NCBI GenBank assembly: GCA_038245785.1
Contig: JBBRSB010000031.1
Location: forward strand, 1 to 62,035
Direction of reading: 5' to 3'
Source of the DNA: Gloeobacterales cyanobacterium
Lineage (GTDB): Bacteria > Cyanobacteriota > Cyanobacteriia > Gloeobacterales > PMM-0068
DNA length: 62,035 bases
Part shown: positions 6,613 to 53,505 of the stretch, in pieces
Layout of the letters: every line of letters begins with the position of its first letter
Position numbering within the stretch: the stretch's first letter is position 1
Made by a program: the position numbers and the translations under genes
The notes under the pieces: model-generated
Seen by the model: only the letters and a program-made list of their open reading frames with translations
Database searches by the model: none
Told to the model about the DNA's origin: nothing

Positions 6613-6685
6613 TTGCCTTCGACACTGCTCAACGCGAACTTCCCTTACACCACGACGAACTTTTCTAGAAAAAATGCGCTCAGCT

Positions 6686-12090: not shown

Positions 12091-12900
12091 ATGCACCAAT
12101 TCGATCGACCTGAGAAGCAAGCAATCGAATACGAGCAGCAGCAAATTCTGCAACAGCTTGAAGACTGGCTAGAGTTGCCAATGCTGGTACTGAGCTTGGC
12201 TTGGCTCGGTCTGTTTATCGTGGAACTCACTTGGGGACTCATGCCACTGCTAGATACGATTAGCCTCGGCATTTGGGGTGTATTTATCCTGGAATTTGTC
12301 CTCCGACTATCGCTTGCGCCCCACAAAGTTTCTTATCTCAAAGCCAACTGGCTTACGGCACTCTCACTGCTTTTACCCGCTCTACGAGTGTTCCGGTTCT
12401 TGCGCATCATGCGAATTCTACAAACGACGCGAGCTGTTCGAGGACTACAATTGCTGCGCGTTCTAACCCGAACGAATCGCAGTATGAGATCGCTCACCGC
12501 CAATTTTGCTCGACGCGGATTTGGCTATGTGGTGATGACGACTGCAATCATTACACTCGCTGGTGCTGCGGGAATGTATGCCTTTGAACAAGAAGCTCCC
12601 GATGCCCTGGGGTTTGACAGCTACGGCACGGCGCTTTGGTGGACAGCAATGCTGATGACCACAATGGGATCAGACTACTTTCCCCAAACGCCAGAAGGAC
12701 GCATTCTCTGTTTTTTGCTGGCGCTATATGCATTTGCGGTGTTTGGCTATGTAACGGCAACTTTAGCCACCTTCTTTATTGGACAGGATGCTGACAATGA
12801 CGAAGCAGAAATTGTTGGAGCAAAATCGGTTGATGCCTTGCGAAACGAAATCATCGCCTTGCGAACCGAGATTCAGAGCTTGAGACAGAACAATTTATAA
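12091..12900 (+). CDS. Ion transporter / potassium-channel-like membrane protein
   Basis: Arg-rich S4-like segment, ALWWTAMLMTTMGSDYFPQTPEGR pore region. Confidence 0.85.
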   Translation: MHQFDRPEKQAIEYEQQQILQQLEDWLELPMLVLSLAWLGLFIVELTWGLMPLLDTISLGIWGVFILEFVLRLSLAPHKVSYLKANWLTALSLLLPALRVFRFLRIMRILQTTRAVRGLQLLRVLTRTNRSMRSLTANFARRGFGYVVMTTAIITLAGAAGMYAFEQEAPDALGFDSYGTALWWTAMLMTTMGSDYFPQTPEGRILCFLLALYAFAVFGYVTATLATFFIGQDADNDEAEIVGAKSVDALRNEIIALRTEIQSLRQNNL

Positions 12901-48724: not shown

Positions 48725-49403
48725 TTATTGATTGCGTTTTAAGCCCATTTGGGCGTTTCTAATGGCAAAGGTAACTATTTGGCGAAAGCGTTCTCGGGGC
48801 AGAGGGCCTGGCCAAGTTCGTATCTTTTCTAAGATCTCAAGTGCATTCTTAATGTCAACTCTGCCGCGCCTATAGTAACGTCCTCGTCGGACATAAAGGT
48901 TTCTCGATAGATTGATCACATTATCAGTAAATTCTCTTGTTTTGCCACACATTTCAACATCTTGCTTTAGTTGAACAAAAAGGTTCTCTTCATCCACTAA
49001 GAAGAGGTTATTTTTGCCATGGATTCTATAAGCTCCAAGAATCTTATCCTCGATAAATACTGGTCCAAAGTAAGCTGCCAAAGAAATAAGTAAGTGATCT
49101 GGACAGGTACGCCAGTTTGCGGTAGGTAATGGAAAGATGTTTTCGAGAATCTTGCGTCTGTAGACTAATCCTGAAATAACCGTGTACAGGTGTCTAGCGC
49201 CGGTGGCTCGTAGAAGGGGATATAAATCTAGTAATTCTCCTTCTACTTCGGGAGGTCTTGCTTTGACAATACAAGCTTTATCGCGAGAATTCAGTCTTGG
49301 TTTTCCTTGACTATCAATTCTTCAAGAGAGTGCATGAAACCGATCGCTTCCGGATGTTCAGCGAGATCCAAGACAACTGTATGGATACGGTGGGGATAGC
49401 TAA
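48725..49403 (-). pseudogene. GT2 remnant lacking its N-terminus
   Basis: SYPHRIHTVV...ISGLVYRRKILENIFPLP...LGAYRIHGKN; frameshift near 49320; 5' part missing next to the IS remnant. Confidence 0.7.
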
Positions 49404-49484
49404 CTAACCCTGATCTGTCAAATTGGGACTTTTCAACGCAAGTACGACATTTCAGCCAACGAGAAATGAAAAGCCCAATCGCAG

Positions 49485-49507
49485 CCCTTCGACAGGCTCA
49501 GGAACCA
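49485..49507 (+). repeat. 23-nt micro-insertion, family A
   Basis: CCCTTCGACAGGCTCAGGAACCA splits the IS200 end hairpin. Confidence 0.8.
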
Positions 49508-49602
49508 CAAGCTGCGGGGTATCTAAAGCGGAAACAACCGTATCTGTTGTGCTCTAGCTTTCTCTTCTTCGCTTCCTTGCTCTCGAATGTACTTTTTGAC
49601 AA

Positions 49603-49627
49603 GCGTTCGACTGAGCTCACGCCGAAG
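49603..49627 (+). repeat. 25-nt micro-insertion, family C
   Basis: GCGTTCGACTGAGCTCACGCCGAAG; removal restores T-E-I-V-K-K-Y. Confidence 0.8.
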
Positions 49628-49741
49628 TCTCAGTGTTGACGCCATCGCCAACCGTGCCAATATAGCCACCATCGCTCCAGAATTCCCCGCCCCATAGCTG
49701 TTTACGGATTTCTGGAATTGGATAAACATCTGCCGGGCACT

Positions 49742-49762
49742 GTGTCCGGCAGGCGGAGCCGA
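49742..49762 (+). repeat. 21-nt micro-insertion, family B
   Basis: GTGTCCGGCAGGCGGAGCCGA; removal restores S-I-S-A-R; identical to 53182-53202. Confidence 0.88.
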
Positions 49763-49774
49763 GATACTTTTGAG

Positions 49775-49797
49775 AGGTCCCTGAGTTTGTCGAAGGG
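49775..49797 (-). repeat. 23-nt micro-insertion, family A
   Basis: Minus strand CCCTTCGACAAACTCAGGGACCT; removal restores M-Q-I-L-K-S. Confidence 0.82.
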
Positions 49798-50231
49798 AAT
49801 CTGCATCACGCGAGAGGGAGAATACTTCGGAGCTGCTCCGACAAACAAATGCACATGGTCTCCATCCGTACCCATCTCCTCCATCTCAAACCAGTAGCAC
49901 TCTGCAATCCCTTTTATAACCTGCTTTAAATACACGCACCGTTCTTCGACAGTTAACAAGCGCTGACGATACTTGATACAGAAAACCATGTGATACCGAA
50001 TCTGATACACGCAATGACTCGCACGCTGGAGTTTTATTCCCAGATTATAGGGCCGACCTCACGGTCGTAGGTAGATCTTTTACAAAGGAATTGCATTAAT
50101 ACAAACTTTTGAAGTATGTGCTAGGGTAAACTCATCTTAATTTTTGAAAAGCTTACTGGACATAGGAGTTTGACGAACTCGGTTGTTTTCTATGAATTGC
50201 CGAAATCCCCCCTAAATAAGGGTTTTAGAAT

Positions 50232-51134
50232 TTATATGCGTTTACCCTGAAGTCTATACAAACCAGCTCTCCACAAGCTGCGACGCCAACCCGACCAAGC
50301 TGTTAGATCGAGATACTTATAAAAAAGCTGTTTTCGGCTATGTCGACGCCATAGCCAAGGTTTTCTGTTGTCTGCGAAGTGTATGATATAAGGATTATTT
50401 ATAATGTCTTGACAGTTAAACTCTCCACAAATTTCCTTTAACGAATCAACAAATACTCGCTCCAGTTTACTAGATTCATGAAATAGATAATTCCATTTTG
50501 GATCTAGTTCACTCCACTTATCCCATAGCATGGCATTTAAAGCTTCTTGGTCTCCAAAAAGTGTATGTTCTCGAGGTTTAGTAAGATATTCTATTATTTT
50601 TGATGAAGTATTATCTTCTCTCCATTTATCCAAGTTGAATACTAAAACACCACTGTTGAAATATTTGCTTGTTGCGGGAATACCAAGTTCTTGGTGATTT
50701 GGTACCCCTTTAGAAATAGTAGGCATAGAGAAGTCTCGGACGGCTAGAAGATGACGATCTCCAATTTCTATATTCCACAACTCACCTATGTCTGTTAGTA
50801 CCAATAAATCACAGTCTAAATAAATAACTTTGTGTAAATCTTTGGGCATAAGCTCGGGAATGAGGAGTCTGTGAAAAATAGCTTCAGAGAAATGACCATA
50901 GGTAGGAACTTCTCTAAAGAGACCTTTGGTATCGGCAAATTTTACATTACATCTAGGTGAATTGAGAGATTGAAGTAACTTGTCTATATTTCTAGGTTCA
51001 ATTCCTCCATCCAAAACGTATAAATTTAGTTTCCGATCAGCAGTGAGATTCTTAAGAATTGAACATGCTGTAACAGCGAGAGGCATGGCATAGTTATTGT
51101 CTGCAGCACAAACTACCGTAATATTGCTATTCAT
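50232..51134 (-). CDS. Glycosyltransferase family 8
   Basis: IYLDCD, YFNSGV, DQEALN, IIHF...KPW. Confidence 0.92.
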   Translation of the reverse strand: MNSNITVVCAADNNYAMPLAVTACSILKNLTADRKLNLYVLDGGIEPRNIDKLLQSLNSPRCNVKFADTKGLFREVPTYGHFSEAIFHRLLIPELMPKDLHKVIYLDCDLLVLTDIGELWNIEIGDRHLLAVRDFSMPTISKGVPNHQELGIPATSKYFNSGVLVFNLDKWREDNTSSKIIEYLTKPREHTLFGDQEALNAMLWDKWSELDPKWNYLFHESSKLERVFVDSLKEICGEFNCQDIINNPYIIHFADNRKPWLWRRHSRKQLFYKYLDLTAWSGWRRSLWRAGLYRLQGKRI

Positions 51135-51200
51135 ATGTGTTTATCTCCAGATTATTTATCTCAAGAATATAAATAAATATAACAGCAGAGTTAACTTGAC

Positions 51201-52136
51201 TTAGAGTCGTGAATGACCTAGCCCAAGTGTTTCAAGCCCCAGTTTGAAAACAGTTTTGAGTTTTGAAGGAAGGCTTGTTACCCAGGGATTTTGCAAGGCT
51301 AATCGACTGAGATAAACTAAGTTCTTTTCATAACCTAGCTTGTATCTCAGTAACTGATAGGGCCAGTGATCGGCCAGACTGACTTCTACATTAACGCCGA
51401 AACTTTTGAGAGCATTATTTAATACTTCCACTCGGACTTCATGGTTTTTCAACGATCGCTTTTCTAGATCGATAGGATTGCTCCAGATATTAGCACCATG
51501 AATGCGAAATAGGGATAGAACTCGATCGATGCCTACGACTTCCCCGAAAAATGGAGCTAGATCGGCTAAGTAAGGTTCAGCCGAAAAGCGGAATTCTCCC
51601 TCCTGTGGGATATCCATCACTTTAGATAGAAACGTCCGTCTAAAACTTAGCGCTGTTGACGGGGGCCAAGGCCACCAACTTCCCGTTCTGACAACCTTAC
51701 TAGAAATATCTCCTTTGATCGCTTTGTAGGGCGGCCAAGGTGAACTGAGGGATTTCCCCTCTTGATCGATATTTTGAACTTTGTGGTAGATAATAGCAGC
51801 ATTTGGATAGGCACTAACAACTTTAACCACTTCTTCAACTTTATTAGGCAACCAGATATCATCTGCATCCAACGAGCAAATAATTTCTCCTTGACTAATG
51901 GCAAATCCCGCATTTATTGCAGAAGCCTGTCCGCCATTTTCTTTGAGAACTGGGATAATTTTGTCTTTGTAACTGGCGATCGCCTCCTTGGAATTGTCTT
52001 TAGAACCGTCATCCACCACAATTACCTCTATATTGGAATAAGTCTGATTGAGGGCGCTATCTATTGCCTCCCTCAAATATTGACCGTAGTTGTAATTGGT
52101 AATTAAAACACTCACTAAAGGCAGATTAGAAATCAT
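51201..52136 (-). CDS. Glycosyltransferase family 2
   Basis: VSVLITNYNY, VVDDGS, LDADD. Confidence 0.93.
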   Translation of the reverse strand: MISNLPLVSVLITNYNYGQYLREAIDSALNQTYSNIEVIVVDDGSKDNSKEAIASYKDKIIPVLKENGGQASAINAGFAISQGEIICSLDADDIWLPNKVEEVVKVVSAYPNAAIIYHKVQNIDQEGKSLSSPWPPYKAIKGDISSKVVRTGSWWPWPPSTALSFRRTFLSKVMDIPQEGEFRFSAEPYLADLAPFFGEVVGIDRVLSLFRIHGANIWSNPIDLEKRSLKNHEVRVEVLNNALKSFGVNVEVSLADHWPYQLLRYKLGYEKNLVYLSRLALQNPWVTSLPSKLKTVFKLGLETLGLGHSRL

Positions 52137-52280
52137 ATTTATTTAACAGAAGGAAAAAGGGCATGTAAATTAGTTTGTGCTAAAGGTCAGAGCTTGAGAG
52201 CTAATGAACTAACTCACCGAGGTACAGACCATGACCTTTCGACCGGAACTCATTGATGAATTGCTCAAAGACTATCGTAA

Positions 52281-52304
52281 CCCTTCGACACGGCTCAGGA
52301 GCCA
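52281..52304 (+). repeat. 23/24-nt micro-insertion, family A
   Basis: CCCTTCGACACGGCTCAGGAGCCA; removing 23 nt restores Y-R-N-P-E-D-L. Confidence 0.82.
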
Positions 52305-53181
52305 CCCGAAGACTTGATGGGTGAGGGTGGAATCTTTAAGCAGTTGACCAAAGCCTTAGTCGAGCGCTGCTTAACGGCTGAACTGGACACTCATCTGGAG
52401 CAAGAGCGTGCAGAGCCAGAGCCCGCTAGTTCCAATAATCGCCGCAATGGACACAGCAAGAAGACCATTAAAGGCGAGTTTGGGGAAGCTGCGATTGCCG
52501 TGCCGCGCGACCGCCACGGCGAGTTTGAACCAATAATTATCCAGAAGGGCCAGACCCGCTTTACCGGCTTTGATGACGAGACTGTGTCGCTCTACGCCCG
52601 TGGCATGACGACCCGAGATATCCAAGCGAGTTGCACGATTTGTACGGGGTGGAAGTGTCCCACACCCTCATTTCCAACGTGACCGAAGCGGTAGAGACGG
52701 AGCGCAAACTCTGGCAGAATCGGGGGCTCGATGCGGTTTATCCGATGGTCTTTCTCGATACCCTGGTGGTGAAAGTGCGCTAAGAGGGCCGTGTCATCAA
52801 CAAAGCAATTCACCTGGCCTTAGGCGTGAATCTAGCGGGAGAGAAGGAGCTATTGGGGCTGTGGATAACGCAGAACGAATCGTCCAAGTTTTGGTTGTCG
52901 GTGCTAACAGAGTTGCAAAATCGCGGTGTTAAGGACATCTTCATTGCCTGTGTCGATGGGCTCACGGGCTTTCCTGAAGCGATTGAAACAGTCTACCTCC
53001 AGACGCAAATACAGCTTTGTATAGTTCATCTGGTGCGTAATTCCCTCAGCTATGTTTCTTACAAAGACCGCAAAGCCGTCGCTGCTGACCTGAAATTGGT
53101 GTACGGCGCTGCCACAGATGGGCAGGCAGAACACGCACTAATGACCAAGGCAATTTATACTACCAATGCCATTGAATCAAT

Positions 53182-53202
53182 GTGTCCGGCAGGCGGAGCC
53201 GA
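53182..53202 (+). repeat. 21-nt micro-insertion, family B
   Basis: Identical to 49742-49762; removal restores I-E-S-M-N-M-T. Confidence 0.88.
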
Positions 53203-53311
53203 GAACATGACCCTGCGCAAGATTTTACGGAATCATCGTTCTTTTCCGACAGATGAATCTGCCATGAAAGTCATTAATTTAGCAATCCAAAATATTTCTA
53301 AGAAATGGACT

Positions 53312-53335
53312 CGGCCCCTGAGCTATGGCGAAGGG
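53312..53335 (-). repeat. 24-nt micro-insertion, family A
   Basis: Minus strand CCCTTCGCCATAGCTCAGGGGCCG; removal restores K-W-T-M-P-I-R-D-W. Confidence 0.82.
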
Positions 53336-53505
53336 ATGCCGATTCGAGATTGGAAGAGTGCATTAAATCGGTTTGCCATTGAGTTTGAATGGGGTTTCCC
53401 GTGTAGCCATTTCCCCCTTGACACAAACTACTTTACAAACCCGGAAAAAGCATCAATCAAGTTAATTTTTCAATTAATGAAAACCGCAAAGCAACATAAA
53501 TTAAA

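Follow-up and report, generated by a model that had tools for sequence, protein, structure and literature searches.

Dispersed inserts of 21-25 nucleotides in two insertion sequence remnants of a Gloeobacterales cyanobacterium and a GIY-YIG nuclease gene linked to their core hairpin

Introduction

The small dispersed repeats (SDRs) of Nostocaceae, SDR1-8, were reportedly described by Elhai et al. in 2008 as dispersed, precisely inserted repeats of 21-27 nucleotides (nt). They are said to form nested arrays, to show compensatory changes and to lie within heptamer repeats and within minitransposons or transposon remnants, and the same work reportedly proposed that they move via an RNA intermediate and a reverse transcriptase of the group II intron type. 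To our knowledge, the mechanism by which repeats of 21-27 nt move has been open since 2008. SDR5/HIP1 and the restriction of SDRs to Nostocaceae are mentioned in passages of two further papers (PMC5861425, PMC4390886). In passages of Chenal et al. 2025 (PMC11893778), the nuclease SsnA is described as binding its hairpin only on single-stranded DNA and cutting a few bases upstream, and Ssn cassettes are suggested as possible agents for the spread of their own repeats. Here, a stretch of 62,035 nt from a Gloeobacterales cyanobacterium (contig JBBRSB010000031.1 of assembly GCA_038245785.1, hereafter the window) was analyzed, in which seven micro-elements of 21-25 nt interrupt the remnants of two insertion sequences (IS) of the IS200 and IS256 families. 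The window is contig C31 of the 5.0-Mb draft genome of the source organism (G000), and two sister genomes, G001 and G002, were used for comparison. The elements are inserted precisely and recurrently, are spread over the genome with an excess in IS DNA, and share a core with the hairpins that flank a small GIY-YIG nuclease gene. They resemble selfish micro-elements more than a defence against transposons.

Results

Seven precise insertions in two IS remnants

The insertions were tested by pairwise alignment of the window IS copies to sibling copies, filled sites being compared with empty ones. All seven, which an earlier note had proposed from the letters of the window, proved to be real insertions, each without counterpart in at least one homologous IS copy. 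Four lie in the IS200 remnant (approximately 49465..50068, reverse strand), a Y1 transposase pseudogene with a right-end hairpin that was assigned by PF01797 and by alignment to the copies on contigs C88 and C43. The C88 copy has none of the four inserts, the gaps being 23, 25, 21 and 23 nt long, and the C43 copy is filled only at the 25-nt site. The four are a family A insert of 23 nt in the loop of the end hairpin (49485..49507, forward strand; gap in C88 and C43), a family C insert of 25 nt that shifts the frame near the C-terminus of the transposase and is also present in C43 (49603..49627, forward; gap in C88), a family B insert of 21 nt, in frame and with a TGTC tag at its start (49743..49763, forward; gap in C88), and a frameshifting family A insert of 23 nt (49774..49796, reverse; gap in C88). 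The remaining three interrupt the IS256 remnant (52160..53442, forward strand; PF00872), which was aligned to copies on C21 and C193 and in G002: a frameshifting family A insert of net 23 nt (52282..52304, forward; gap in the C21 and G002 copies), a family B insert of 21 nt in frame (53183..53203, forward; gap in C193 and G002) and a family A insert of 24 nt, also in frame (53311..53334, reverse; gap in the C21, C193 and G002 copies). The C21 copy, with an identity of about 85%, does not have the inserts at 52282 (net 23 nt) and 53311-53334 (24 nt). It has the 21-nt insert at 53183 in common with the window apart from a single base, and carries a 24-nt insert of its own; the 53183 site is empty in C193 and in one G002 copy.

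It can be observed that three inserts shift the transposase frame and that one interrupts the IS200 end hairpin, within its loop, as the earlier note had claimed. Inheritance of all inserts from one ancestor was rejected, since no sibling copy was found to hold five of the seven. Seven sites in about 2 kb is a high number even for embedded IS (0.8 expected, Poisson P = 2e-5). In the contigs of two sequencing runs, the empty alleles matched sibling IS copies, and no polymorphism could be assigned to the window locus. The further claim that the elements occur only in IS holds within the window, where there is no other catalogued copy, and fails genome-wide, where 34 of 62 sites in G000 lie outside IS; the copy once suspected at 6616 (6616-6640) is a core-only match in a spacer for which no empty site was found, and is still doubtful. 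The C88 and C43 IS200 copies have an in-frame, doubly compensated B variant just after the start codon (L004:480-500, L049:10899-10919), which the window copy is without.

Both window copies are broken by lesions independent of the micro-inserts. In the IS200 remnant, the start codon and the left-end hairpin are gone and alignment to its siblings reveals a 1-nt deletion near 49715, while the IS256 remnant, bounded by an 8-base-pair (bp) target duplication (52152-52159 and 53443-53450), has lost 1 nt, which shifts the frame, as well as 102 nt, and contains a TAA stop, all apart from its inserts. The two remnants, recognized by Pfam, are located in a glycosyltransferase cluster; a broken glycosyltransferase gene (48725-49400) adjoins the IS200 remnant and has no catalogued element inside.

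Families, core and target sites

A catalogue was built by iterative pattern peeling of G000 with the reversed genome as control, and comprised 84 elements, often nested, at 73 sites, compared with one in the reversed genome; it is incomplete, further related families and deeper nests being visible. Before counting, window site 53311 was added, the doubtful C9:85544 was removed and adjacent sites were merged, while 10 pure hairpins of the nuclease-flanking type (A0) were counted separately. This resulted in 61 merged sites, or 62 with two adjacent IS200 inserts counted apart. Element lengths are constant at 21 nt for B, 23-24 nt for A and 25 nt for C, and neither A nor B is accompanied by a target duplication beyond a 1-nt ambiguity. 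The B target is Y-T|C-R, with T at -1 in 40/40, C at 0 in 36/40 and a purine at +1 in 37/40, and A is inserted after C (C at -1 in 24/24) with a weak G-Y-A-N-C preference, both sets of counts including nested targets and the consensus being inflated by them. Insertion recurs at the IS200 end hairpin: 5 of 11 copies are filled at one and the same base, at left as well as right ends, and at least three variants are involved. A general targeting of hairpin loops was not supported, since stems of at least 4 bp surround 6/24 A and 8/40 B targets against a background of 16-23%; the IS200 end alone stands out.

The core TGAGC-N2-4-GYCGAA is common to A, B and C, taking the form AGGC-GNA-GCCGAG in B and differing by one base in the 53311 copy. 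The earlier note had drawn such a core for A and C; it is wider than that, as B has it as well. Compensatory swaps are present in 7/24 copies of the B mini-stem, the predicted stems of the seven window elements comprise 3-5 bp, and no Rfam match was found among 18 loci. The orientation of the elements with respect to the host frame (20 same, 9 opposite) is confounded by stop codons and was not used.

Several other repeats were encountered in G000. On C43 (L049:4140-4160, 12269-12289), a repeated unit of about 50 nt holds another SDR-like family, itself the host of a nested B, and the end of this unit resembles a CRISPR-type repeat. A multi-copy non-coding element carries A inserts (L056:1100-1300, L055:3700-3900, L051; G000:C25 and C2, approximately 9.9-11.1 kb); a reverse transcriptase gene is located at a distance of about 2.4 kb from one of the copies, and the element has no Rfam match. 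Several other abundant hairpin repeat families with G/C runs, of 20-55 copies each, and a CRISPR-like repeat of 41 copies are also present. PipX and CP12 matches mark the genome as cyanobacterial. HIP1 sites are scarce in it (242, or 48 per Mb), and contig C21, over 85 kb, has 130 CGATCG, many more than the other contigs that were checked, which suggests a different origin.

The core hairpin is linked to a GIY-YIG nuclease gene

A small, frameshifted UPF0213-like gene, confirmed as a stand-alone GIY-YIG gene by PF01541, is located at G000:C16:63398-63676 and is flanked by inverted, core-bearing hairpins, which have been invaded by nested A, B and C elements (L037:2410-3090; C16 approximately 63200-63900). 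The best 80 of 502 related loci, which come from many phyla, were scanned for the core from -330 to +250 nt around the GIY-YIG match; all 80 have it there, 59 of them on both sides, compared with 2/80 in the control. In 326 distinct hairpins the arms covary, with Watson-Crick pairs in 312, 302, 301 and 273 against shuffled means of 175, 122, 141 and 173; G-T pairs are few, and the core with its GNA loop is invariant. The GNA triloop is a stable DNA motif. Moreover, among 151 genomes of the class, the gene was found in 4 of the 10 with at least 50 cores and in 2 of the 141 with fewer (P = 1.4e-4, kin not being independent). The closest structures to the nuclease are the UPF0213 proteins 1ZG2 and 1YWL; no NCBIfam match was obtained for the protein, which is distant from the one NTS-linked protein found, itself on a long branch. 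A linked HUH/RAYT nuclease or reverse transcriptase had been envisaged in the earlier note: the nuclease gene linked here is of GIY-YIG type, and neither a RAYT nor a reverse transcriptase gene is adjacent. No reverse transcriptase lies near any catalogued element in G000, and among eight Y1 transposase loci, the five scanned are not flanked by the core, the other three being IS200 copies with inserts.

Enrichment in IS DNA

IS DNA was masked through searches with eleven Pfam families, extended by BLAST, and genes were taken from a custom hexamer gene finder. The IS mask takes in 26 of the 62 sites, and 2 more lie in end hairpins of IS200 type; among the remainder, 21 are intergenic elsewhere and 13 are located in open frames. 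The enrichment proposed earlier holds genome-wide against intergenic DNA and non-IS pseudogenes, neither control being truly age-matched: embedded IS have 26 sites in 48.9 kb and intergenic DNA 21 in 691 kb, a 17.5-fold difference that is 13.4-fold without the window, and non-IS pseudogene fragments, recognized via in-genome paralogues, have 2 in 48.6 kb (2 in 23.3 kb for the clearly lesioned ones). The IS on small, collapsed contigs amount to 91.7 kb and contain no catalogued site; the consensus of such contigs would mask copy-specific inserts. With these contigs added the enrichment is 6.5-fold, and 5.3-fold (P = 6e-7) when shared events are also collapsed. A purely regional enrichment was rejected, since on contigs longer than 30 kb the counts are 17 sites for 26 kb of IS and 9 for 578 kb of intergenic DNA. 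Within embedded IS, copies with other lesions have 13 sites in 9.7 kb, compared with 5 in 20.8 kb, a crude comparison in which the lesion count is possibly inflated where excision of an insert left one base; the difference fits accumulation in dead copies.

Sites outside IS and in other genomes

The non-IS sites are clustered, 16 of 32 being within 5 kb of another. In tyrS (G000:C29:23888; L042:446-470), a 24-nt insert adds eight residues in frame, and the G002 site is empty. Other hosts, identified by scanning of stop-free segments, comprise a POTRA gene, a PEP-utilising gene, genes for MazF and DUF4351 proteins, and spacers such as trmD-pipX. An island rich in toxin-antitoxin genes (G000:C2:212-229 kb; L025, L026) has seven element sites and no IS was detected in it. 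In G001 and G002, IS linkage was seen for 8 of 19 family B matches; the others include a RecD-like helicase gene with a B element in frame at the identical site in both (L174, L180). When 400 other genomes from the phylum were searched, 14 contained family A; in these other cyanobacteria, 3 of 26 loci touch IS by Pfam (75 of 101 candidate frames scanned), and most of the 26 lie within heptamer repeats or other hairpins. Exact B copies occur in the metagenome contigs L334, L337 and L332, with flanks unlike those of the other matches; B was otherwise found in only 22 stretches.

Effect on the transposons

Sixteen insertion events in transposase coding DNA were tallied by hand, part of them against an empty allele; 13 are multiples of three and 11 keep the frame open. 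Inserts are common to copies of IS110 (three), IS481 (two), IS200 (two with family C, two with family B) and IS256 (two with family B), and in G002 four copies of one filled IS end are present. From these five inserts shared between G000 copies and the repeated G002 end, it is most likely that IS spread with inserts already in place; for the IS256 pair, two separate insertions into the same site are an alternative.

Discussion

The explanation that we favor, with moderate confidence, is that the inserts are non-autonomous mobile micro-elements of the SDR class, mobilized by a nuclease, and that their excess in IS arises mainly from tolerance, hitchhiking and a hot spot. By analogy with SsnA, the GIY-YIG nuclease or a relative would bind the hairpin on single-stranded DNA and cut beside it, and the short hairpin so released may be joined into single-stranded or nicked DNA elsewhere; the G000 copy of the nuclease gene would have broken afterwards. 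The excess would then arise mainly after insertion. IS DNA would tolerate inserts, as dead copies or as in-frame additions, IS copies would carry them along when spreading, and the IS200 end would act as a hot spot, while most host DNA would purge them.

Several observations weigh against this explanation. Tolerance alone under-predicts the IS excess: lesioned IS outside the window have 6 sites in 7.5 kb, compared with 2 in 23.3 kb for lesioned non-IS pseudogenes (P = 0.004), and the density in long intergenic tracts is 9.5-fold lower. Target motif density was rejected as the cause, since it is no higher in IS and near equal across DNA classes. The residual excess over the pseudogene control therefore keeps a true insertion bias toward mobile DNA in play. 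Furthermore, 6 of the 10 core-rich genomes have no nuclease match at E 1e-20 with this query, and the same query did not match the nuclease subfamily in G001, G002, G117 and G335, in which elements are present. The seven elements show no unusual stability in ViennaRNA (z 0.27 to -0.99), and 11 RVT_1 matches in G000 possibly act in trans. Finally, what Chenal et al. 2025 (PMC11893778) demonstrate for Ssn enzymes is cleavage, not insertion.

The best surviving alternative retains the same elements and nuclease and places the bias in insertion itself, toward mobile or incoming DNA such as IS, toxin-antitoxin islands and plasmid genes, for example while single-stranded in transfer or transposition; the elements would then be hyperparasites of the mobilome. 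We hold this to be possible and rather unlikely. The IS excess survives every control built, the clustering of non-IS sites and the IS-linked B matches of the sister genomes point the same way, many non-IS sites lie in toxin-antitoxin, DUF4351/DUF2887, Uma2 or plasmid-like genes, and multi-copy flanks are present at 5/13 gene sites against 51/600. Contrary to such a bias, however, inserts are located in tyrS, the POTRA gene, the PEP-utilising gene and core spacers, few family A loci of other cyanobacteria touch IS, and none is seen in young collapsed IS, subject to the masking described above. In addition, the IS families that were hit use differing transposition chemistries. In its most specific form, that a UPF0213-like GIY-YIG nuclease mobilizes DNA hairpins of 21-25 nt which insert preferentially into single-stranded mobile DNA, the proposal is a tentative one that we think unlikely to hold as a whole. 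If true, SDRs would be hyperparasites, driven by a nuclease, of IS and other mobile DNA, and the mechanism so far lacking for the smallest known mobile elements would be supplied.

It is improbable, in our judgement, that movement takes place via RNA and a reverse transcriptase of the group II intron type, with a nuclease link that is ancestral only. The RVT_1 matches in G000 and the persistence of elements in genomes without a nuclease match would suit this route, but no reverse transcriptase lies near the catalogued elements, the stems covary almost without G-T pairs around a GNA triloop, and Rfam offers no match. A host system that inserts sequences into transposons to disable them, as the earlier note had suggested from the three frameshifts and the broken end hairpin, and to which the stop codons within two IS1 inserts and the tendency of hit IS to be dead might be added, is largely refuted and very improbable, since the frame stays open in 11 of the 16 events, IS went on to be copied with inserts in place, elements are found in host genes too, both window copies are dead through other lesions, and the nuclease gene is broken in G000 and patchy elsewhere.

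The locus, then, does not reveal an anti-transposon defence. For nuclease-driven movement of repeats of 21-27 nt, as favored here, it offers precisely mapped element ends, rules for the target, alleles without the insert and a candidate enzyme of which intact homologues exist, such as the 102-amino-acid frame at L078:1429-1734, with which the question of mobility becomes a direct assay of oligonucleotide cleavage and insertion. It also points to a candidate pair of single-stranded DNA nuclease and hairpin that does not conform to the SRM pattern as published, and to peptides being inserted in frame into essential proteins, TyrRS for example.

Comparison with known systems

The elements were set beside SDR1-8 by the features reported for these, and on this footing an SDR-like identity, put forward earlier, is supported. 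Like SDRs as reported, they are dispersed and 21-25 nt long, have filled and empty sites (at the seven window sites and tyrS), form nested arrays and are present in heptamer repeats and transposon remnants. The compensatory structure reported for SDRs is seen here in the B mini-stem and the nuclease-flanking hairpin, the folding energy of the seven elements not being significant. Unlike SDRs, they reside in a HIP1-poor host with no sign of Nostocaceae, show a strong IS excess and have a candidate mobilizing nuclease. Within the literature searched, mostly papers outside subscription, the core sequence was not found printed, Chenal et al. 2025 was the only relevant nuclease paper, and none was found on a GIY-YIG gene flanked by repetitive extragenic palindromic (REP) repeats.

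The hairpin and nuclease pair resembles Ssn by architecture. As in passages of PMC11893778 on Ssn and NTS, a single-domain GIY-YIG gene of about 100 amino acids has its own oriented hairpin on both sides, across phyla, and gene presence tracks repeat abundance. It differs in that the SRM pattern is present in 2/80 loci here, compared with 76/80 NTS loci, and in that NTS are described there as rarely intragenic, whereas the present inserts often are. The pair was not filed as Ssn because the hairpin does not match the SRM pattern (18 in G000 against 38 in the control, and 0/6 window stretches) and because the protein is closest to UPF0213 structures. With the CGTC-tagged REPs, as far as covered in passages of Di Nocera et al. 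2013 (PMC3733652), the elements have in common short oriented hairpins, tolerated intragenic copies and the lack of a dedicated transposase, and the TGTC variant of the tag starts B only; in contrast to those REPs, they have no stem of 8-9 bp, and A, B and C are single or nested, not dimers. Finally, the arrangement recalls REPIN/RAYT, in which, according to passages of PMC3116915, small hairpins are spread in trans by the gene they flank; here the flanked gene that may play this part is a GIY-YIG nuclease, not a core-flanked Y1 transposase.

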